In this document: positions 4,816 through 41,769 of the stretch, in pieces
Position numbering within the stretch: the first letter of the stretch is position 1
Layout of the letters: each line of letters starts with the position of its first letter
Assembly: GCA_038059695.1 (NCBI GenBank)
Contig: JBBTIZ010000011.1
Location: forward strand, 1 to 52,500
Direction of reading: 5' to 3'
Length of the DNA stretch: 52,500 bases
DNA from: Planctomycetota bacterium
GTDB lineage: Bacteria > Planctomycetota > MHYJ01 > JACQXL01
Translations under genes and position numbers: made by a program
Notes under the pieces: model-generated
What the model saw: the letters and a program-made list of their open reading frames with translations, nothing else
What the model was told of the DNA's origin: nothing
Databases searched by the model: none

Positions 4816-5202
4816 TTAGACATCAGCCTCATACAAATCACCTCCCATCCTCGGTTCTATCTCCTGAATCAAATCCCAATAACCCTTAGAAAACCGACGG
4901 CCTGTTCCGTATTTATCCAGCCACTCATCCCAGAGCACAAACATGAGCACCTCGATAATCTGCTGTTTCAGATGCGGATAGACCCGGGCCAGGGCTTTTA
5001 GATCCTTGGCGATATCCTGCCGGATAGCCGGCTTGTTGTCCGCGGCGAACTCCAGCAGGCGCTTAAGCGAGCCGAAACTGCGCAGGATATAGAGGTAGGG
5101 ACGGACCAGCCGGAACGACGCCTCGTAGAGACCGGGCTGGTCGTAGAACTGCTCCTTCAGGAACTCAAAACTCGTGTAACTATCTGCGTGTTTCCTTTTC
5201 AT
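4816..5202 (-). CDS. Hypothetical protein (128 aa)
   Basis: ORF with SD AGAGAGG and host-like codon usage. Confidence 0.7.
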   Translation of the reverse strand: MKRKHADSYTSFEFLKEQFYDQPGLYEASFRLVRPYLYILRSFGSLKRLLEFAADNKPAIRQDIAKDLKALARVYPHLKQQIIEVLMFVLWDEWLDKYGTGRRFSKGYWDLIQEIEPRMGGDLYEADV

Positions 5203-5218
5203 ATAAAACCTCTCTTTC

Positions 5219-5276
5219 TTACTCGCTGTTAAACTTTAGTTGTTACAGCGAGTTAGACCCCGCAGAATTGCGGGGC
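5219..5276 (-). repeat. TAA-punctuated double-hairpin element, copy B
   Basis: Minus strand: GCCCCGCA..TGCGGGGTC TAA CTCGCTG TAA CAACTAAAGTT TAA CAGCGAG TAA, then SD. Confidence 0.8.
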
Positions 5277-5278
5277 AT

Positions 5279-6082
5279 TCATTGTTTGTGGTTATCCAAG
5301 AAATTATAAATTTCATTTATCGGCACAACCCCAGCCATTGTGGTGACCAGTTGTCCATTGTAAACCTTAACCCATACCGCTATACCAATGACTTCATATG
5401 TCCGGGCGTCGTAGACAGGTCCACCTGAATTTCCTGGAAGTATGGGAGCGGAAATCTCGTAACATGAACCACTGAAGGCACTGAGGCACCCTGAAGAAGG
5501 CCGGGGCGGAAGACCCAAGGAGCATCCAACCGCCCATATAGGAGTAAATAGATACGGAGTATAATTCTGAGGCGCTAATTTTGCTTTTGTCACAGAGCCA
5601 CAGAGGCCACTGAGAAGAGCCAGGTCTTTTGCAGTATCTGTTATAACTACAGTTGCTTGTATTTCTTTTGTTACAGGATAAAAGAACTCTATTGTTACAC
5701 TGGATTCATCCTGGACGACATGTGCTGCAGTTAAAATATATATCTGTTCTGTGTTTTCAGTGTCTTCTGTGGTGAATACTACTCCTGAACCCGTCGAGCA
5801 TCCCGCAGTTATTCTTACTGTTGGATATAGAAGTTTCTCATATTCATCCTGATATGGATGCCTTGGTTTTTCAGGCGCCTTTATTATTACTATTTCTGTC
5901 TCTGTGGTCTCAGTGTCTCTGTGGTAAAAACTCGTCCCCAGGAGAACTATCAGTGCAATCCCTAATATCTGCGTTAATCTGCGTACCATAACCCACCATC
6001 CTTTCTTTATGGAGACGGTTGGCCTCTGCGGGCTCTGTGCCTCAGTGGCTAATCTTTTGTTTCTCCATAAGGAGGGGGTCAT
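5279..6082 (-). CDS. Membrane-anchored trypsin-like serine protease
   Basis: LTAAHV, DLALL and GNSGGP catalytic triad motifs; N-terminal hydrophobic helix; start uncertain. Confidence 0.85.
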   Translation of the reverse strand: MTPSLWRNKRLATEAQSPQRPTVSIKKGWWVMVRRLTQILGIALIVLLGTSFYHRDTETTETEIVIIKAPEKPRHPYQDEYEKLLYPTVRITAGCSTGSGVVFTTEDTENTEQIYILTAAHVVQDESSVTIEFFYPVTKEIQATVVITDTAKDLALLSGLCGSVTKAKLAPQNYTPYLFTPIWAVGCSLGLPPRPSSGCLSAFSGSCYEISAPILPGNSGGPVYDARTYEVIGIAVWVKVYNGQLVTTMAGVVPINEIYNFLDNHKQ

Positions 6083-6261
6083 ATGAACCCTTTTCCTATA
6101 AATCTGAGGCGAGTATTTTCGCTATTTTGCCATATTTATGAGGGAATATAAGGGGTTAAAGAAAATGCAAAAATCCGGGCAGGCCAAAAACGCAGGACTC
6201 GTTTTCCTCTAAGTGAGGGGGATAGGGGGTAGTACCCCACCCTAGCACCCTAAGGCCGGAC

Positions 6262-6535
6262 AGATAGCCTGATTTATCAGGGCATATAGCCGAAATGATT
6301 AGGTCAGATAGCCCGATTAGTCAGGCAGGATAGCCGAAATGATTAGGTTAGATAGTCCGATTAGCCGGGCCATATAGCCGAAATGATTAGGTTAGATAGC
6401 CCGATTGATTAGGTCAGATAGTCCGGTTGATTAGGTCAGATAGCCTGATTAGTCGGGCAGGATAGCCGAAATGATTAGGTCAGGTAGTCGGTCTGGTTGG
6501 GCCAGATAGTCTGATTAGTTGGGTCAGATAGCCGG
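6262..6535. repeat. Degenerate tandem array, 22-bp period, 12 full units plus a partial unit
   Basis: Units like AGATAGCCGAAATGATTAGGTC start every 22 bp from 6262 to 6526. Confidence 0.92.
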
Positions 6536-6597
6536 AAAATGAGGGGTGGATAGTGGGGATAAAGAACCGGCCGGCCGGCGCTATTCCGATTGGCGGC

Positions 6598-7263
6598 CTA
6601 TTTCAATAACTTGCGGGCCAGGTTGTGCAGTTCCGGATTGGCCAGGGCCAGGACCTTTTTCTTGACCACCCGCGAGAAATATTCCGTCTCGGTCTTAGTG
6701 AGTTTTTCGCCCTGCAATTTCTTCAGGAACAATGACTTTTGCCCGGCGGAGAACAACTGGGACAGGGCATATTCCAGCCCGGCCTCTGATTTCAGCGCCA
6801 TCAGGTCATTGAGATTTGATTCTGAACCCTTGAGATACCGGTTAAAGGTGTTTTTCAGCCGTTGGCCGGACATTGAATAATCCTTTAACTTTAAATCGTG
6901 ATTACGCGTCAATGAGTTGCGGAATTGCTCCAGTTTGCCCCTCAGTTCTTTGGTCAGCATTTGATGGAGTTTTTCGGCCCAGGCAAACTTCAGGCCCAGC
7001 GCCTGATACAGGGCCAGCGACATCAGTACCAGCAGTTTAAAATATACCCGGTCCGCCGGCTTCAGATATTGGCTGGTCCGGCCGTAAGAGAAGAGATTCC
7101 GCTCGGAACTGTTGGCCAGCGCCACCGGAAACCCCTCCCAGAGCCGCAGGTCGCGGGACTGCACCAGCCGGGCCAGGGTCAGATTGGCGTCCACCATTGA
7201 TTCCGGCTCCATTAACTTAAAACCCAGACTGCTTAGGTTGTTCAGCAATTCTTTGTCATTCAT
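6598..7263 (-). CDS. Hypothetical protein, probable partner (antitoxin/regulator) of the nucleotidyltransferase
   Basis: Overlaps the upstream gene; basic C-terminal HTH-like segment LFSAGQKSLFLKKLQGEKLTKTETEYFSRVVKKK. Confidence 0.6.
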   Translation of the reverse strand: MNDKELLNNLSSLGFKLMEPESMVDANLTLARLVQSRDLRLWEGFPVALANSSERNLFSYGRTSQYLKPADRVYFKLLVLMSLALYQALGLKFAWAEKLHQMLTKELRGKLEQFRNSLTRNHDLKLKDYSMSGQRLKNTFNRYLKGSESNLNDLMALKSEAGLEYALSQLFSAGQKSLFLKKLQGEKLTKTETEYFSRVVKKKVLALANPELHNLARKLLK

Positions 7264-7843
7264 TGATTAACTTCTCCTTCTTGAGGATACGCCAAAAATG
7301 CTCCAGATTCTTCAGCACGGCCTCTTCCGAGGTATCGTATTGAGCGGTGGCTTCGAACCGGCTCCGGAGCTTGGTGAAATCTATCTCCCTGGTTTTGGCC
7401 CGGATTAAGGCCAGGCAGTCGTCAATATCCACCTGAGTAAACCGAAAGAGCTTGCTGATAATCAGGTCATAATGATTAAGCATGCCCAGATAAATCCGGC
7501 TGAACTCCTTAACCAAAACGTGGTTACCCGGCTCCAGCGGCGACTCCAGAAGTTCGGTCGTATGAATCCGCTTGTACCGGAACAGGTCGAATATAAAACC
7601 ATCGTCCCGGCTCCAGCCGTAGGCCTTGACCGGCTTATAGCCCAGTTGGTCCAGGGTCTTAATCAGGTAGTCGTATTCGGCCTGGACCGGCACCAGCAAA
7701 TCAATATCCTTGGTTGAGGGCTTGATGCCCTGGAGCGTTAGGGCCGTGCCGCCGCAGGCAATCAGATGCACGCGCCGCTTGAGGAAATCGTTCCAGACCA
7801 TCAGCCGGCCGAACAACCCGCCTTTATCTATTCTGTAATCCAT
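7256..7843 (-). CDS. DUF6036/AbiEii-like nucleotidyltransferase
   Basis: ACGGTAL..TKDIDL pol-beta-type NTase motif; DLIISKL..D. Confidence 0.8.
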   Translation of the reverse strand: MDYRIDKGGLFGRLMVWNDFLKRRVHLIACGGTALTLQGIKPSTKDIDLLVPVQAEYDYLIKTLDQLGYKPVKAYGWSRDDGFIFDLFRYKRIHTTELLESPLEPGNHVLVKEFSRIYLGMLNHYDLIISKLFRFTQVDIDDCLALIRAKTREIDFTKLRSRFEATAQYDTSEEAVLKNLEHFWRILKKEKLINE

Positions 7844-7975: not shown

Positions 7976-8286
7976 ACAATATATTGTATAATTTAATACA
8001 ATCCTTTGTATGTATATATACAATAATTAAAACACTTGTCAAGTAAAATATTTATTTTTATGCGGGATTTTAACCGAATGGTGCCCCATCCGGGTCTTAA
8101 GGGCTGTTTCTCCAAAGCGTGGCCTTAAATGCCGGGCCAGCGGAAATTAGCCGGGCTGAAACAGACCATCCTGGCCGTTAGGCAATATGTCAGGTATTGA
8201 GGTATTAGGAAAACGATGCCTTGCGAAGTCGCAGCGAAGTCCCGATTATTTCGGGGTAATGCAGATAAATCAAGGGTTATAAAATA

Positions 8287-8301
8287 TGTGGTCTGTCCCA
8301 C
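8287..8301. repeat. RAYT-type end motif, perfect inverted partner of 9993-10007
   Basis: TGTGGTCTGTCCCAC vs GTGGGACAGACCACA. Confidence 0.7.
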
Positions 8302-8326
8302 TGATGTGCGATACTTACTCTTTCAA

Positions 8327-9846
8327 TTATATAGCAGATTCCTCAACCTCAAATTCTGGGACCTCTACCGAATTTCCCTTACCCCAAAGTATCTCCCAAA
8401 TTAACCACTTAGTAAGAAATGATTCTATTTTGAATATAGTTTTAGCATCTTCTTCTAGAACTTTTTCTCCTTTATGTAAGAATCTGTTTCTTTTGTTTTT
8501 CATTTGTATGATTAAACTATATTGCTTAAAGTTTATCTGGCCAGAGAGGCTAAGAATTTCTACTGCTCTGTCGGCTGTATAATTTTTTAGTTTATTTTTC
8601 CTGTCTCCAATAATTTCAGTAGATTTTTGTTCCAGGAACTTATCCCACAAATAATTTATAAATTTTTCAATAACCATCCATCCCATTATAAACGTTTGAT
8701 TGTATTCGGATCCTTGTAAATAAGAATATGACTCCAATAAATAAATCAGAAGCTCTGCTATGGTCTCATTTTTTGTAAAAAGTTCGGCTTGCTTTATTGT
8801 TTCTTTTACCTGTTCTTCAGAAATCTCTCTTGTTATATTAAAATCATAGCCAGTCCTTTGCTTAGGCGTAAATTCACCTTCAAATGCGGTGGTTCTTAAT
8901 GAAACATGCATCGGCATGCTTCTACTGCCTATTTCTGATTTATCTGGAGATATTTCTGCTGTGCCTAATTCTAATTCTTTTACAGCGTAAAATGGGATAT
9001 TGAGAAGTAACGCCGTAGCCATTATTTCATTCAACATCTTTAAGGCTTGAGTTTTCTCGTTAACGCCAATCGCAATAAATCCATTTTCGTTAACAACAAT
9101 CTTACATCCTCTGTATTCTATATCAAAAGATTTTTTAGGCCACATGAATACCCTGGAATCAAACGCTTTTTCTTCAAAACTTGGATTGGGCTTTTTGCCA
9201 ATCCAAATTGGGGGATAGAAGTAAGTTCCAAAACCTTTTATTGAAACTGGAGGAGTTTGTTGAGGGGCAGAAACTGGTTGGTTCTGAGATTTTACTCTAT
9301 TTGTTGCATAACCTATGATTTGACTGATTATTTTTTTGTATCGAGTTGCTGAACATTCCCGCTTGCTTTCCAGGAAAAAGAATCATCTGTAAGTCTACGT
9401 TTCATTCCAATTCCAGCTTGATACAAGTTCTGTTTAGAAAATATAGTGATAAAGGCTCCTCCTTTGAAGCTTCTCAACAAGTCAATAAAAAGCCCTTCAA
9501 GTAACGTAGCATATATTCGCTTAGATTCATTTTTGCTAATCCGTATTTCGTCTTCCGGTAGTTTCCGCTGCCATTTTTCATCTTTTAATTTTTCCTTTAA
9601 TTTTTCTGATGCTTCATTTGAGTCGCTTTCATTAACGATTATATCTAAATCAGGCTTGTCTTTAAAGTGCGTAAAAATGAAAAGTTGATCCTGTATCATT
9701 AAACCGTGATTCTTAATAACAAAGACTTCTACTTGTAAAGGAGAACTTAAATTGTCAAGGTTGCTTACATTTTCTTTGTCTTGTTTCGAAAGTTTGGCAT
9801 ACTCTGTACGAAAATCTTGAACTAAATGTCTAATCCAATTTTGCAT
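8327..9846 (-). pseudogene. AT-rich HEPN-domain gene split by a -1 frameshift at an A7 run
   Basis: ORF 9328-9846 ends ACA AAA AAA TAA; the -1 frame is open from there into ORF 8327-9145, which carries RNRFLH (HEPN RxxxxH). Confidence 0.7.
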
Positions 9847-11835: not shown

Positions 11836-11896
11836 GATAATCTGGGATAATCTGGGGATAATCTGGGATAATCTGGTAATCTGGGGTAATCTGGGG
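11836..11896. repeat. Six tandem TAATCTGG(G) units
   Basis: Read directly; the units copy the outer tip of the adjacent inverted repeat. Confidence 0.85.
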
Positions 11897-12097
11897 ACAC
11901 AATACTAGTTAATTTATTGCACACTCCTAAATAATAAGTTACAATAATAACACTATGGCACGATTAGCCAAAGCCGTTATTCCGGGGATTCCGCACCATG
12001 TTACCCAAAGAGGCAATCGCAGACAACAGGTATTTTTCCGAGATGCTGATGACATATAGGTTAAACAGGAGGAAAACTAGTATTGTGTCCCCAGATT
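11888..12097 (+). mobile_element. Miniature RAYT derivative with perfect 23-bp terminal inverted repeats
   Basis: AATCTGGGGACACAATACTAGTT / AACTAGTATTGTGTCCCCAGATT; internal ORF 11955-12059 MARLAKAVIPGIPHHVTQRGNRRQQVFF is a RAYT N-terminus. Confidence 0.85.
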
Positions 12098-12914: not shown

Positions 12915-13032
12915 GTGCCAGAGGGACACTTCCCACCGCCGGAATCCCTTTACTTTCCTATCCCGCGTGTCTTGTGCCAGAGGGACACTTCCCACCGCCG
13001 GAATCCCTTTACTTTCCTATCCCGCGTGTCTT
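12915..13032. repeat. Exact 59-bp tandem duplication containing the RAYT end
   Basis: 12915-12973 equals 12974-13032. Confidence 0.9.
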
Positions 13033-13748
13033 TCTTGTTATAAAATCCCTTCCCAGTAACTCCGCCATTCGGTTTACGAATCTCTTATCACCTATGGGCT
13101 TGCCTGTTTTTGTCGCCTTCCGGATTAAATTCGTCTCGGATTCTTCCGCTTCTGCTTTGATTGTCTTAAGATACTCCTCCCGTTCGCCCTCGTCAAATAA
13201 ATCCTCGGTTAATACATCATCTTTAATCCCTTTAATGTGCGCCACCGCGCTGGAATACGGGTAATCCTCTATTTCCTTTACTATCCGGGCTCGTTTCGGA
13301 TTCCGCTCAATGTACCGGGCCACGACCCATAAATACGGCTCTTCATCTATAATACAAGAATGAAAACGGCTTTCCCATAATCGCCCCGTCCTTTTATATC
13401 GCCTGTTAATGTATTGCGTATAAGACAAACTCACCCCCTGCATCATCTTGGCAAATGATTCTTCTTTACCGGGACGAACCAAGAGGTGAACATGGTTAGT
13501 CATCAGGCAATAAGCCAGGATAGAGACATCCCATCTGGTGGCGTATTCCTTTAGCAGGTCTAAATACCTAGCGCGTGTTTCCTGGGCAAAGAAGACCTTT
13601 TGCTTGTTATTACCTCTTTGAATGACATGATGAGGAAAATCCACGGCGACCGCTCTGGCAACTCTCGGCATAAGAGGTACTTTATAAAAACTATGTCTTA
13701 TGTGTCAAGTAAATTAAGTGTTGTAGCCGGTGGGAAGTGTCCCTCTGG
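12977..13748 (-). mobile_element. RAYT element bounded by 21-bp inverted repeats
   Basis: CCAGAGGGACACTTCCCACCG (12977-12997) / CGGTGGGAAGTGTCCCTCTGG (13728-13748). Confidence 0.8.
13009..13671 (-). CDS. REP-associated tyrosine transposase (Y1 HUH)
   Basis: HHVIQRGNN, YCLMTNHVHLL (HUH), YIERNP, YPYSS motifs. Confidence 0.92.
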   Translation of the reverse strand: MPRVARAVAVDFPHHVIQRGNNKQKVFFAQETRARYLDLLKEYATRWDVSILAYCLMTNHVHLLVRPGKEESFAKMMQGVSLSYTQYINRRYKRTGRLWESRFHSCIIDEEPYLWVVARYIERNPKRARIVKEIEDYPYSSAVAHIKGIKDDVLTEDLFDEGEREEYLKTIKAEAEESETNLIRKATKTGKPIGDKRFVNRMAELLGRDFITRKTRGIGK

Positions 13749-30682: not shown

Positions 30683-32154
30683 TTCATCACTATCCTGATG
30701 GATTGATAGGTTACATCCAACAATAACTTCAATTCCTTAACCGTAATACTCAAGGGCGGCATCAGGACGATGACATCCCCGAGCGGCCTTAACATAACGC
30801 CCTGCTTGCGCGCCTCAAGTATCACCTGATGCCCCATCCGCGCCTCGCCAGGAAACGGCTCTTTAGTTCCACGCTCTTTGACTAATTCTATACCCGCCAT
30901 AAACCCGCATTGGCGGATATCGCCCACATTTTCCAATTCGTAGAATCGCTCTAATTCTTTAGAGAGCATCTTTATCTTGGGCTGGAGTTTCTGAAGCGTC
31001 TTTTCCTTGCGGAATATCCTGAGGTTCGCCAGGGCCGCAGAACAAGCCAGCGGATTGCCTGTATAGGTATGCCCGTGAAAGAATGTCTTATTGTCCTTAA
31101 ATTCGCCTAAGAATGCCCTGAATATCTTTTCAGTAGTTAGTGTGGCGGCTAATGGCAAGTACCCGCCGGTAATGCCTTTGGCTACGGTCATAATATCCGG
31201 CGTAACATTCTCGTGCTCACAGGCAAACATCTTACCGGTTCTGCCGAATCCGGTGGCCACCTCGTCGGCTATCATCAAAACATCATATTTAGTGCAGAGT
31301 TGCCTGATGCGCCTGATGAAGCCCTTGGGCTGGGTAAGCATCCCGGCTGCGCCCTGGACCAGCGGCTCAATCACCACGCCGCACAATTCTTTATGGTGCT
31401 TTTTAATAAGTGTTTCGGTTGCTGTGAGGCATTGTAAATAACAATTAGTTTTATTATTTTCTGTGGACGCGGCTCTAATCCCCCTGATTCCCCCTTTGCA
31501 AAAGGGGGACAAAGGGGAATTTAACGGTGGCGTCTTCCCGCAGGGACAGCGATAGCAATAAGGCGCCGGCGCCTGAATGGTCTTGAATAACAACGGCTTA
31601 TAGGTCTTGTGAAACAAACCCATCCCGCCTAAACTCACCGAGCCGATGGTATCGCCGTGATAGCCGTTAACAAAGGTCAGGAACTTACTTTTTACTTTTG
31701 ACTTTCTACTTCTTACTTGTCTCTGGTACTGGAATGCCATCTTGAGCGCAATCTCCACGGCCGTTGAGCCGCCGTCTGAATAAAATACCCGCTGTAAGCC
31801 ACGAGGCGTCCCGATGCCCCGAAGGGATACGGGGCGCTCCGCTCGTGAGCATCGGAGCGCAATCCGGATGAGTTCCTCAGCCAATTCTATAGCCGGGACA
31901 TTGGACAGCCCTAACATCGTAGAATGCGCCACCCTGGAGAGTTGATTCTTGATTGCTTGGTTAATCTCCTTGACCTGATGCCCGTGGACATTGCACCAAA
32001 GCGAGGAAATGCCGTCTAAGTATTTCCGGCCCTTGGTGTCATAGAGATAATTTCCTTTAGCCCGCGCAATAATCACGATATCGTCGGCCAGCCAATCCTT
32101 CATCTGGGTGAAGGGATGCCAGAGGTATCTCTTGTCTTTACTCTCTAAACTCAT
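30667..32154 (-). CDS. bioA: Adenosylmethionine-8-amino-7-oxononanoate aminotransferase
   Basis: WHPFTQM, ADEVATGFGRTG, AKGITGGYLP, HGHTYTGNP. Confidence 0.95.
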   Translation of the reverse strand: MSLESKDKRYLWHPFTQMKDWLADDIVIIARAKGNYLYDTKGRKYLDGISSLWCNVHGHQVKEINQAIKNQLSRVAHSTMLGLSNVPAIELAEELIRIALRCSRAERPVSLRGIGTPRGLQRVFYSDGGSTAVEIALKMAFQYQRQVRSRKSKVKSKFLTFVNGYHGDTIGSVSLGGMGLFHKTYKPLLFKTIQAPAPYCYRCPCGKTPPLNSPLSPFCKGGIRGIRAASTENNKTNCYLQCLTATETLIKKHHKELCGVVIEPLVQGAAGMLTQPKGFIRRIRQLCTKYDVLMIADEVATGFGRTGKMFACEHENVTPDIMTVAKGITGGYLPLAATLTTEKIFRAFLGEFKDNKTFFHGHTYTGNPLACSAALANLRIFRKEKTLQKLQPKIKMLSKELERFYELENVGDIRQCGFMAGIELVKERGTKEPFPGEARMGHQVILEARKQGVMLRPLGDVIVLMPPLSITVKELKLLLDVTYQSIRIVMNYLNS

Positions 32155-32358: not shown

Positions 32359-32438
32359 CAACCCCCTTTATCCCCCTTTAGTAAGAGGGAATTAGAATTC
32401 CCCACCACTCCCCCTTAGAAAAGGGGGCCGGGGGGTTG
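32359..32438. repeat. CCCCCTT/AAGGGGG REP doublet
   Basis: Related copies at 37772-37857 and inside bioA at 31477-31522. Confidence 0.7.
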
Positions 32439-37749: not shown

Positions 37750-37893
37750 TTCAGCCACCAAGGCACTAATACAACCCCCTCGCCCCCTTTAATAAGGGGG
37801 AATTAGTGGCCCCCGAATTAGTCCCCCTTAACAAAGGGGGAATAAAAGGGGGTTGTTTCCTAAGTGGCAATGAATTCTCTTGATAGGTAATGT

Positions 37894-39336: not shown

Positions 39337-39414
39337 AAATCCCGGCGGGTAGCAACTGCGCAATTCCCATTTTTCTTACCCATCTAAATCAGCGGTGTTA
39401 TAATCCCTGGCATT

Positions 39415-39603
39415 ATGACAACGCCAGCATCTGTAACCTGTAGGATTTGCGGCAACGCCGGCCCAAACAAGGCCTATCTGGTAAAGGAAATGCTCCTGGG
39501 CACCAGAGATGAATTCGAATACTTTGAGTGCACGAACTGCGGCTGTCTCCAGTTATATAATACGACAGAACTAACTGGTGTGCGGGCTGCTGTCGGAGGT
39601 TAA
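39415..39603 (+). pseudogene. Truncated class I SAM methyltransferase (N-terminal zinc ribbon only)
   Basis: CRICGN..KEMLLGTRDEFEYFECTNCGCLQ, then an early stop. Confidence 0.65.
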
Positions 39604-39611
39604 TTTTTTGA

Positions 39612-40091
39612 CTATGGTATCTCAAATTCACGCCAGTATAACTTTTCCTGTTCTGGTAAACGCTCAAACTGATTACGGGTTAACATTAAGACCTTCTCGC
39701 CATAAGGTAAAGTCCGCTCGTGATAACGAACATAAGCCGTGGCGCCCGGTCTTCCCGGAATATCCCTGAAGATAAGCCAGCCGCCGCCTTTGGGCTCTTT
39801 CTGGTGCGTGTACTTAACAGACGGTTCATTATACCTCAGGAGAATCTCCGGCTTGAAATAATATGAAACCGGATTGGCAATGGTCAGATAGTAATCCTTT
39901 ACTTCCGCCACCCTGAAACGATACGTCTGGCCGACTTTATTATAAGGCAGTTCACCCCTTTTGATAATCCGGTAAAGGGTGCGTAAACTTATTCTTAACA
40001 GCATACATACCTCATCAGAGGTGAGTAATTCCTGGGGGTGTTTACTAAAGAGTTCGGTAAATTTAATGATGGTTTTCTTCTTCTTTGGCAT
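39612..40091 (-). CDS. Excisionase/BldC-like HTH_17 DNA-binding protein with an extra C-terminal domain
   Basis: LLTSDEVCMLLRISLRTLYRIIKRGELPYNKVGQTYRF. Confidence 0.85.
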   Translation of the reverse strand: MPKKKKTIIKFTELFSKHPQELLTSDEVCMLLRISLRTLYRIIKRGELPYNKVGQTYRFRVAEVKDYYLTIANPVSYYFKPEILLRYNEPSVKYTHQKEPKGGGWLIFRDIPGRPGATAYVRYHERTLPYGEKVLMLTRNQFERLPEQEKLYWREFEIP

Positions 40092-40354
40092 ATGACATCC
40101 TATGACAACTCCTGACAGAACTCATCCTGTTAATACCGCTTTATGCGGTTAAAATACCATTTTTTAGGCCAAAAAGTCAAGGTTTTGCGCCTTGTGACTT
40201 ACCCTTGACCTAATGAATTATCTGACAAGTTAAGGTGATAAAATTCCTCTAACATCTTTAAATTACTAATGATATATCAAAAACATTTAACCTTTTATGC
40301 CAGATAAATTACTGATACAAAAATGTCCCCCCGGTGGGGGATAGGGTACCCCCT

Positions 40355-40689
40355 CATATCCCTTAGCCCCGAGAGTCATATCCCTTAGCGCCGGCAGTCA
40401 TAGCCCTTAGGGCCAAGAGTCATACACCTTATAGCCAATAGTCATACCCATTGTCCCCGAGAGCCATACCCTCTAACCCCAAGAAGCATATCCCTTAGCG
40501 CCAAGAATCATAGCCGTTAGCCCCAAGAGTCATACGCCTCAGCCCCAAGAGTCATACCCCTTAGCCCCAAGAGTCATACTCCTTAGCCCCAAGAGTCATA
40601 CTCCTTAGCCCCGAGAGTCATACGCCTCAGTCCCAAGAATCATACCCTCTATCGCCGAAAGGCATACACGTTAGAGCCGCTATGCATAC
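40355..40689. repeat. Degenerate tandem array, 22-bp period, 15 full units plus a partial unit
   Basis: Consensus about CATACCCCTTAGCCCCAAGAGT; CATA recurs every 22 bp from 40355 to 40685. Confidence 0.95.
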
Positions 40690-40741
40690 CTGCGATGAAT
40701 TTAATGGACAGGACTTGAAGTCCTATGTTATAATAAATTAT

Positions 40742-41626: not shown

Positions 41627-41769
41627 CCACAGATTTAACCGGTTGCTTTCAGATAATTCAATAGAATAGGAATTCACTTTTTAACAACGGGATTTAGCTG
41701 ATTGAACTGATTTTTCCGTTAAATCCGTTTAATCCTGTTGTCTATAATTATACCAATTAATTTGTGCCT

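Follow-up and report, generated by a model that had tools for sequence, protein, structure and literature searches.

Intergenic 22-bp tandem arrays with a G/C-run leader form a dispersed element family in one planctomycete lineage and include members linked to HTH_17 genes

The window analysed here is a 52,500-nucleotide stretch of DNA from a Planctomycetota bacterium (GenBank assembly GCA_038059695.1, contig JBBTIZ010000011.1, positions 1 to 52,500), and it contains two tandem arrays with a period of 22 bp (array 1 and array 2), each preceded by a leader with runs of G and C. Both are members of a lineage-specific family of leader-plus-array elements that are dispersed, intergenic and non-coding; this assignment is well supported. 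These elements share a common plan, with a G/C-run leader followed by about 8–18 head-to-tail units at a fixed period of 22 bp, i.e. two helical turns. About one element in ten lies 50–530 bp upstream of a gene for an HTH_17-X protein, which combines the HTH_17 family with domain X, a C-terminal region of ~85–120 residues that has no Pfam family and is common to the array-linked HTH_17 proteins. The window corresponds to contig C11 of genome G000, a partial assembly of 1.27 Mb in 92 contigs (55.5% complete), and the sequencing runs that hold its DNA are groundwater or aquifer metagenomes. The S10 ribosomal operon, pgk, aroC, guaB, der, murJ and lptFG identify the window as chromosomal; no tRNA was found in a scan of it. 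The features of the two elements are as follows.

6213–6240, plus strand: leader of array 1, GTGAGGGGGATAGGGGGTAGTACCCCAC, a G/C-run sequence that includes a small GGGGT-AGT-ACCCC hairpin
6257–6564, plus strand: array 1, 13 units of 22 bp (6257–6542) and one degenerate unit, with a 44/88-bp higher-order structure
39395–40692, no strand assigned: module of 84-aa open reading frame (ORF), HTH_17-X gene, leader and array 2; the extent and the left border are approximate
39413–39667, minus strand: 84-aa ORF, predicted only, with no family hit
39612–40091, minus strand: HTH_17-X gene for a 159-aa protein, with a winged helix at residues 22–67 and domain X at residues ~76–159
40092–40326, minus strand: region separating leader and HTH_17-X gene (spacer and putative promoter)
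40327–40353, plus strand: G/C-run leader of array 2, CCCCCCGGTGGGGGATAGGGTACCCCC, the minus strand of which scores as a hairpin followed by a T-run
40355–40706, plus strand: array 2, made up of 16 units of 22 bp with CATA at the start of each

Tandem arrays were located with Tandem Repeats Finder (TRF) in the window and on all G000 contigs, and their register was checked in 22-base rows and by autocorrelation, with 300 composition shuffles as a control. TRF reported array 1 at 6261–6487 with periods of 22 (10.3 copies, 65% matches) and 44 (5.2 copies, 79%), and at 6261–6533 with a period of 88 (3.1 copies, 78%). Between 6264 and 6550, the word ATAG recurs at one fixed place in 13 of 14 successive 22-bp slots. 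The autocorrelation of array 1 rises from 0.62 (lag 22) to 0.72 (lag 44) and 0.75 (lag 88). Array 2 was reported at 40354–40647 with a period of 22 (13.4 copies, 80% matches, 0% indels), CATA is present in all 16 slots from 40355 to 40685, and the autocorrelation at lag 22 is 0.77. Lags of 21 and 23 give values of 0.27–0.29, and the maximum at any lag among the shuffles is 0.39 (arrays 1 and 2). The middle units of array 2 are the most uniform, and the last three are degenerate. A preliminary description, made from the letters of the window, had reported an exact 22-bp register and quoted a leader string before each array; the register is confirmed, and the strings read as quoted, with GTGAGGGGGATAGGGGGTAGTACCCC at 6213–6238 and GTGGGGGATAGGGTACCCCC at 40334–40353.

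The sequence of array 1 recurs in metagenome contigs assembled from other runs. Contigs from run X1 (possibly the source sample) and run X8 (another study) span 6224–6535 and 6305–6535, respectively, and both are without differences. A contig from run X6, the second run of the study that produced X8, spans 6045–6483 and differs by 27 substitutions and four 1-base indels. These indels cancel pairwise within 4–8 bases (6297/6305 and 6325/6329); therefore, the register of array 1 is preserved in this diverged strain. No indel of whole units (multiples of 22 bp) is listed for array 1 across the three contigs. Since independent contigs reproduce array 1, it is not an assembly artefact. A candidate joint skipping 5989–6715 in runs X1 and X8 was rejected as repeat noise, with a shorter side of only 21 bases.

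Array 2 is gene-linked, with the array, its leader and the HTH_17-X gene forming a stand-alone 1.3-kb module between der and ubiA. The module is missing from G001, a genome of the same genus, in which the der and ubiA homologues are 43 bp apart. The distal end of array 2 adjoins the conserved ubiA promoter region, and homology to the G001 ubiA promoter resumes exactly at this point. A further relative, G002, has the HTH gene (at 82% nucleotide identity) together with a leader and an array, followed by a further 2.6 kb; the repeat unit of G002 matches that of array 2 at 14 of 22 positions. The presence or absence of the module could result from either insertion or deletion. A promoter-like TTGACT-18-TATTTT, which is a match to consensus only, lies at 40180–40151 on the minus strand.

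The two arrays represent a class that is far larger than had been noted when the preliminary description proposed a common type of cis-element from the shared period, length (~0.2–0.4 kb) and leader. In the 1.27 Mb of G000, TRF found 73 arrays with periods of 21/22 or multiples, amounting to 12,276 bp. The 54 tandem arrays of at least 100 bp have fundamental periods of 21 (17 arrays), 22 (24), 42 (1), 44 (5) or another value (7), and none of them has a period of 19, 20, 23 or 24. Nearly every array has its own unit sequence, and the 31 period-22 arrays of at least 80 bp fall into 22 unit families; the suggestion that phase matters more than sequence thus agrees with the retention of register across these families. 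A contiguous 400 kb of G004, a genome of another genus (97% complete), contains nine arrays of period 22/44 and two of period 21. The resulting density of one period-22 array per ~44 kb is the same as in G000.

All 27 of the elements examined are intergenic, and their neighbours follow no orientation rule. A position upstream of a leftward accessory gene, proposed earlier as a shared property, does not generalise: the leader-side neighbour points toward the element in 16 cases and away from it in 10, with one missing, and the array-side neighbours point toward it in 15 and away in 9. No universal neighbour gene was found among them, and the only recurrent sets are HTH_17 genes (three), Eco57I-type restriction-modification (RM) genes (three) and class II aminoacyl-tRNA synthetases (two). 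The type IIG (Eco57I/MmeI-type) RM genes are located at C18:5844–9011, C45:1472–4441 and C4:44803–47346, each within 2.5 kb of a period-22 array.

The G/C-run leader is specific to the period-22 class. Strong G/C-run flanks accompany 22 of 32 period-22 arrays (at least 60 bp), none of 22 period-21 arrays and 1 of 15 other repeats; among background windows, 0.8% have such a flank. Among the 10 period-22 arrays below the flank threshold, three have a leader ~100 bp further away, behind a second short array. When the leader was searched as an 18-mer with up to two mismatches, with the reversed 18-mer as a control, it was found at five places in G000, all within ~110 bp of a period-22 array; the leader of array 1 differs from this genome-wide 18-mer at two positions. 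The preliminary description had stated that its proposal would fail if the leader were common without arrays or if other period-22 arrays lacked it, and it withstands both comparisons. The leader shared by arrays 1 and 2 is real, but it is a genome-wide motif and not a private link between the two. Its variants include GGGGGAGGGGGATGGTGGGGGGTAGTACCCC, GGGGGGAGTCCCCCACCCCCC preceded by AAATCAACCYCTTAC, and a C-rich mirror form.

Several further patterns were examined in and around the leaders. Offsets of 0 and 10 from the leader TACCC to the array recur, but several TACCC candidates are present per leader. An oriented unit core TAC(C/T)C shared between arrays was rejected: counts on the two strands were 9 versus 0 of 21 arrays and 11 versus 1 of 14, but 3 versus 2 of 14 in the replication set described below. 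Gibbs sampling, run without a shuffle control, found ATAnCC on the leader-oriented strand in 16 of 21 arrays. A palindromic G5/C5 element, CAACCCCCT...AGGGGGTTG, is common in G000 but is not linked to arrays. REP-like palindromes of the form CAACCCCCT..TCCCCCTTT...AAGGGGGA..AGGGGGTTG, which are dispersed and likewise show no link to arrays, occur in the window at 31480–31508, 32362–32435 and 37775–37852, and at ~60 other places in G000. An ORF for a Y1/IS200-type transposase (13009–13671, minus strand) could be a RAYT-like partner of these palindromes, and its 3' end is overlapped by a perfect 59-bp direct duplication (2.0 copies, 100% identity) at 12915–13032.

The leader also marks the border of a repeated element, as anticipated by the earlier suggestion of an element terminus. 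Three unit families are present in two to three copies at unrelated sites in G000. In each of them, the homology between copies extends from a defined point 80–140 bp ahead of the array to the outer end of the leader. These multi-copy elements are 300–430 bp long, and the copies differ by gaps of 110, 22 and 22 bases. The mean identity of units to the array consensus, by fifths from the leader, is 0.81, 0.84, 0.83, 0.83 and 0.78. Identity is highest in the middle of the array, which fits homogenisation by unequal exchange and not polar addition. Leader-proximal growth of the type seen in CRISPR was rejected, as unit identity shows no such polarity; a CRISPR array was likewise rejected, as the units are head-to-tail without spacers and no Cas family was found in the window scan.

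HTH_17-X genes are statistically associated with the arrays. All three HTH_17 genes of G000 above the Pfam cut-off adjoin period-22 arrays, and in five relatives such an array lies within 1.5 kb at 15 of 25 distinct HTH_17 loci. The discovery set comprised 20 HTH_17-X loci from G000, G001, G002, G004, G005 and G012. An array is present at 16 of these, whereas L060 has three short rows only and L055, L063 and L066 have none. The arrays are on the 5' side of the gene in 15 of 16 cases; at L052, the start codon is ambiguous. The gap between gene and array is 110–284 bp in 11 of 13 measured loci and 759 and 900 bp in the other two, and the gap between gene and leader at the two G000 loci is 236 and 32 bp. 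The replication set comprised 21 HTH_17-X loci, all of them from genomes outside the discovery set (G006, G007, G008, G009 and G014) except locus L093 of G001; of these, 16 loci with at least 400 bp upstream were scored, whereas in the other five the contig breaks off no more than 270 bp from the start. An upstream period-22 array was found at 14 of 16 scored loci, with gaps of 54–528 bp (four of the arrays are short, 95–125 bp; L101 and L119 have none), and a downstream array at 0 of 21.

Taken together, 30 of 36 HTH_17-X genes from 11 genomes have a period-22 array on the 5' side and none on the 3' side. Of the HTH_17 genes without domain X, 1 of 8 lies near an array. A G/C-run score of at least 12 was found on the gene-proximal side of the array at 15 of 25 gene-linked loci. 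The modules lie among housekeeping genes (gatB, asd, tsaE, DAHP synthase, Nramp, mlaE), the HTH gene is often convergent with the next gene, and no integrase or recombinase family was found among the module neighbours. Nearby HTH proteins had been named in the preliminary description as candidates for binding assays. This choice holds for array 2, the neighbour of which is a member of the array-tied family, but not for array 1, which has no HTH_17 gene beside it and is an orphan with no adjacent HTH_17-X gene.

The window HTH_17-X protein matches PF12728 with 49.1 bits (cut-off 27) and TIGR01764 (excisionase family) with 47.9 bits (cut-off 28.8). Four architectures are found in the family, with domain X following one HTH_17 domain (150–195 aa, as in the window protein), two, three, or an IS1595-type zinc ribbon and one HTH_17 domain; class-b proteins carry the transposase-type zinc ribbon PF12760. 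An AlphaFold model of the window protein, based on an alignment of 31 sequences, has a mean predicted local distance difference test (pLDDT) score of 86.8. In this model, the N-terminal domain adopts a winged-helix fold like that of Xis and BldC. The structural matches of the N-terminal domain include GIsul2 Xis (Z 7.3, root-mean-square deviation (rmsd) 1.3 over 55 residues), Pukovnik Xis (Z 7.0), BldC (Z 6.6, rmsd 1.4 over 51 residues), RdfS (Z 6.4), RacA (Z 5.6) and pSK1 Par (Z 5.6). Foldseek searches with this domain gave E-values of 0.02–0.1, with a TM-score to BldC of 0.72–0.79 by target. PADLOC and NCBIfam returned sub-threshold similarities to MAD1, BldC and RacA that cover the HTH part only, and a search of the ESM Atlas with domain X returned only generic HTH_17 clusters. 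Two other predicted proteins were recorded, P0010 (479 aa), which has seven tandem HTH_17 domains, and P0005 (819 aa), which contains 14 near-identical 58-aa repeats and appears to be a DNA tandem repeat read as protein, not a genuine protein.

Leader and domain X have the same restricted phyletic range. The phyletic set included nine genomes of the window's family (f1), two genomes of a second family of the same order (f4) and 19 other genomes of the order or class. Leaders were found in 8 of 9 f1, 2 of 2 f4 and 0 of 19 other genomes (reversed control, 0–1 hits), and domain X was distributed in the same proportions (8/9, 2/2 and 0/19). The exceptions, G003 (leader without domain X) and G006 (domain X without leader), are both incomplete genomes. 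In a sample of 301 genomes from the phylum, domain X was found in 4 of 4 f1 genomes, 1 of 1 f4 genome and 0 of 295 others. Multiple or close leader hits were likewise confined to f1 (4/4) and f4 (1/1), and single hits with two mismatches occurred in 15 of 295 others, approximately the reversed-control rate. A phmmer search of 1.84 billion representative sequences gave 389 hits with E-values of 0.001 or lower, of which ~25 are full length including domain X.

Among 10 leader-pattern loci fetched from nine genomes, seven have a period-22 array, one has an array with a period of 24/48 bp beside a leader-like match (G003 locus L005:114–312) and two have none. A scan of contigs with the leader pattern returned 12 stretches, 11 of which are likely chance single hits without arrays; the remaining one, L017, is the same DNA as locus L006 of G005.

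A second class of arrays in G000 has an exact period of 21 bp and consists of 22 arrays of at least 60 bp without the G/C-run leader; 18 of these are at least 80 bp long and fall into 15 unit families. Two or three such arrays with different units often abut each other, many of the units are palindromic, and some arrays share another flank that contains GTTATATCAC. No recurrent neighbour was found for this class except one large-protein set. Examples are listed below.

C17:16697–17205: period-21 array
C37:4651–5275: period-21 array
C39:813–1602: period-21 array
C40:19890–20304: period-21 array
C69:49917–50273: period-21 array

In addition, GATAATCTGG is repeated six times at 11836–11897 of the window, and its complement, GTCCCCAGATTA(C/T), adjoins several arrays (C4:~44240, C40:~20330 and C90:~33000).

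The surroundings of array 1 have counterparts in two relatives. The neighbouring genes are as follows.

5279–6082, minus strand: ORF for a trypsin-like peptidase
6598–7263, minus strand: uncharacterised 221-aa ORF, which overlaps the DUF6036 ORF
7256–7843, minus strand: ORF for a DUF6036 nucleotidyltransferase

In G001, a peptidase paralogue is accompanied by a leader and an equally oriented period-22 array, the first units of which resemble those of array 1. In G005, homologues of the 6598–7263 ORF and the DUF6036 gene (80% nucleotide identity) have a period-22 array in the same intergenic position; its unit is unrelated to that of array 1 and its G-run end is on the opposite side. The 6598–7263 and 7256–7843 pair may be toxin-antitoxin-like or accessory, and gave 0 hits in PADLOC and NCBIfam. 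Short multi-copy sequences, with dozens of 80–90% matches in all four relatives searched, were noted at ~5192–5286, ~8176–8342 and ~41666–41745 of the window. Contig depth rises 4–6 fold in the bins 5170–5336 and 8176–8342, where many loose ends occur, and a 36-base insertion variant is present at 5245/5246 in four of four runs.

We lean towards a reading in which the arrays are loading platforms for HTH_17-X proteins, array 2 being a gene-linked platform and array 1 an orphan. Binding of HTH_17-X proteins to the arrays is suggested by the position of the genes, the fold class of the proteins and their co-distribution with the leader. By analogy with Xis, Apl, RdfS, BldC, StbA and ParR, the proteins would load as cooperative multimers, each 22-bp unit taking up one or two copies, and all copies would sit on the same helix face. 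BldC is described as binding direct repeats as multimers by head-to-tail oligomerisation (PMC5859096), the sites of recombination directionality factors as direct repeats one helical turn apart (PMC7498355), and RdfS as forming filaments and recognising long DNA of low sequence conservation (PMC11963761). StbA is reported to bind ten 11-bp-phased repeats upstream of its own gene, which serve as both centromere and operator (bioRxiv 10.1101/2022.04.29.490116). The resulting nucleoprotein filament would control the adjacent gene, mark the locus, or both. Slippage or unequal exchange would lengthen and shorten arrays in 22-bp steps, and whole elements would occasionally be copied to new intergenic sites by a presumed copying mechanism.

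Several observations weigh against arrays as loading platforms. About nine in ten arrays, including array 1, have no adjacent HTH_17-X gene. G000 has two HTH_17-X genes against 31 arrays (at least 80 bp) in 22 unit families; therefore, one-to-one cognate recognition cannot explain the orphans. The word TAC(C/T)C is absent from 9 of 14 arrays of the replication set, and is thus only a frequent word and not a rule. The class-b genes L053, L049 and L072 (G001 and G002) have two or three ATGCAyAGAT-like boxes between leader and start codon, and these promoter repeats could be real operators. Domain X, which is of the alpha/beta type, has no convincing structural relative, with weak KA1-like and RnlA-NRD-like matches at Z ~4.5–5.1. 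The fixed period may also descend from a shared ancestral array, without being maintained by selection. Finally, the co-occurrence of leader and domain X rests on two related families; as f1 and f4 are kin, it represents one or two evolutionary events and not 31 independent observations.

A broader form of the platform reading is possible, although we hold it only tentatively. It would regard the ~50–100 arrays per 2.5-Mb chromosome as satellite chromatin, i.e. as platforms for polymerising HTH_17-X paralogues that read the two-turn period and not the sequence (indirect readout); gene and array would move jointly as single-gene cassettes and thereby seed the orphans. If so, the leaderless 21-bp class would imply a parallel system with another reader.

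The main rival is that the arrays are selfish, minisatellite-bearing elements without host function, similar to miniature inverted-repeat transposable elements (MITEs) such as BrickBuilt, and that their period was inherited from a founder array. A trans-acting enzyme would then recognise the G/C-run end, and the HTH_17-X gene would either be carried along as cargo or supply an autonomous form with its DNA-binding subunit. The elements are indeed discrete and multi-copy, bordered by leaders, always intergenic and of no fixed orientation. The module is present or absent between congeners, class-b proteins have a transposase-type zinc ribbon, and the mid-array maximum of unit identity is the pattern expected from unequal exchange. 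The same anatomy of leader, array and tail, with a 23-nt unit and an always intergenic location, is described for BrickBuilt (PMC4596501). However, no terminal inverted repeats or target duplications were seen in the alignments of the three multi-copy families, in which no systematic search against the ends of insertion sequences (IS) was made, and no transposase or recombinase was found in or beside the modules, the neighbours of which are housekeeping genes. BrickBuilt copies share one unit, whereas 22 families are present among 31 arrays here. Drift should also generate periods of 20, 23 and 24, but 41 of the arrays of at least 100 bp are at 21 or 22 and none at 19, 20, 23 or 24. We consider this explanation rather unlikely as a full account. 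It is nevertheless partly compatible with protein binding, differing from the platform reading in role rather than in mechanism.

Transcription of the arrays into non-coding RNAs that contain the repeats, or a role of the arrays as insulators or terminators of transcription in which the G/C-run leader is the hairpin, is an improbable explanation on the evidence available. A GC hairpin is found in 21 of 23 G000 leaders, compared with 362 of 1000 background windows. Of the same 23 leaders, seven have a hairpin with a T-tail directed out of the array and none has one directed into it; array 2 itself has a leader that is terminator-like on the minus strand. This bias, and with it the leader as an intrinsic terminator, was not replicated in 25 gene-linked arrays of the relatives (three out, four in). 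Moreover, the window has no Rfam match, and 22-bp units of free sequence give no common RNA fold.

An iteron-type origin, a plasmid-type partition centromere or the packaging site of an integrated replicon or prophage, proposed in part by the preliminary description, is very improbable, and the iteron-origin and packaging-site options were rejected. The 22-bp period is iteron-like, and the placement of direct repeats upstream of the gene for a small DNA-binding protein is like that of parC/ParR, stbS/StbA and the pSK1 par locus as these are described. However, the window is chromosomal and each genome has dozens of arrays (~30 of at least 100 bp per 1.27 Mb in G000), in housekeeping surroundings. 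No Rep, ParA/ParM/TubZ-type nucleoside triphosphatase (NTPase), terminase or integrase was found beside the modules examined (54 window ORFs and 28 module neighbours), and the module is only 1.3 kb long with one verified gene. In addition, a replicon has a single iteron cluster, located beside the gene for its Rep initiator, and its iterons share the recognition sequence of that initiator, whereas 22 unit families are found among 31 arrays. Least credible of all are neutral slippage products, hypervariable variable-number tandem repeats (VNTRs) or assembly artefacts without common identity: several arrays do lie at contig ends and the multi-copy families differ by whole units, but independent assemblies keep the unit number of array 1, and the arrays have in common a particular leader, a particular gene partner and a narrow phyletic range.

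Should binding be confirmed, the arrays would offer an accessible case in which DNA is recognised by its register and not by its sequence, the gene-linked modules would show how a protein/array cassette seeds satellite-like DNA, and domain X would gain a function. In practical terms, the arrays break short-read assemblies of this groundwater lineage, and annotators should avoid calling ORFs across them.

Dispersed intergenic modules with internal repeats in variable number include the mycobacterial MIRU and pneumococcal BOX elements, the units of which (40–100 bp, or the 45-bp boxB) are shared across loci. We know of no fixed two-turn period, G/C-run leader or linked HTH gene family for either of them.

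A closer parallel is BrickBuilt of Porphyromonas gingivalis, which is described as a dispersed intergenic element with a non-repetitive leader, a spacer-less array of 22–23-nt units in variable copy number and a second flank, and which is present in tens of copies that make up ~0.4–1% of the genome in a limited host range (PMC4596501). The 19 BrickBuilt copies in that account share one 23-nt unit and IS5-type terminal inverted repeats, whereas in the present family the unit differs between elements, the end is a G/C run and a subset is coupled to an HTH_17-X gene. Compared with MITEs in general, the elements are multi-copy, dispersed, intergenic, non-coding and of defined borders, but lack a common internal unit.

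On the protein side, lambda-type Xis, Apl of phage 186, RdfS and Streptomyces BldC belong to the same domain class and, as described, bind helix-phased direct repeats as cooperative multimers or filaments, sometimes with little consensus. Their reported sites consist of 2–6 repeats at a spacing of ~10–11 bp in att sites or promoters, compared with 8–18 units at 22 bp here. The HTH_17-X proteins further differ from Xis and BldC by the extra domain X and sometimes three tandem HTH_17 domains, and no integrase partner was seen beside the modules. The partition systems StbA/stbS of R388, pSK1 Par (PDB 8csh), ParR/parC and TubR/tubC are described as stand-alone units with phased repeats upstream of the gene for their own (winged) HTH autoregulator. 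Phased direct repeats directly upstream of a (winged) HTH gene were found at 30 of 36 loci, including array 2 but not array 1. As described, those systems are plasmid-borne, one per replicon and with one unit sequence, whereas the present ones are chromosomal, with 2–10 gene-linked modules and ~50 or more orphan arrays per genome in housekeeping surroundings.

Literature searches of full texts (main articles) returned no account of either period-22 arrays bordered by a G/C-run leader or arrays linked to HTH_17 genes, and 0 papers on minisatellites in Planctomycetota. The recurrent position of arrays just upstream of HTH_17-X genes, in this lineage only, suggests a protein-plus-repeat-array system that had not been described before. 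Minisatellite-bearing dispersed elements and polymerising winged-helix proteins are both known in bacteria and had not been connected before; a single lineage here combines two-turn-phased arrays of free sequence (~1% of the genome), a G/C-run border and a lineage-restricted excisionase-like protein family.

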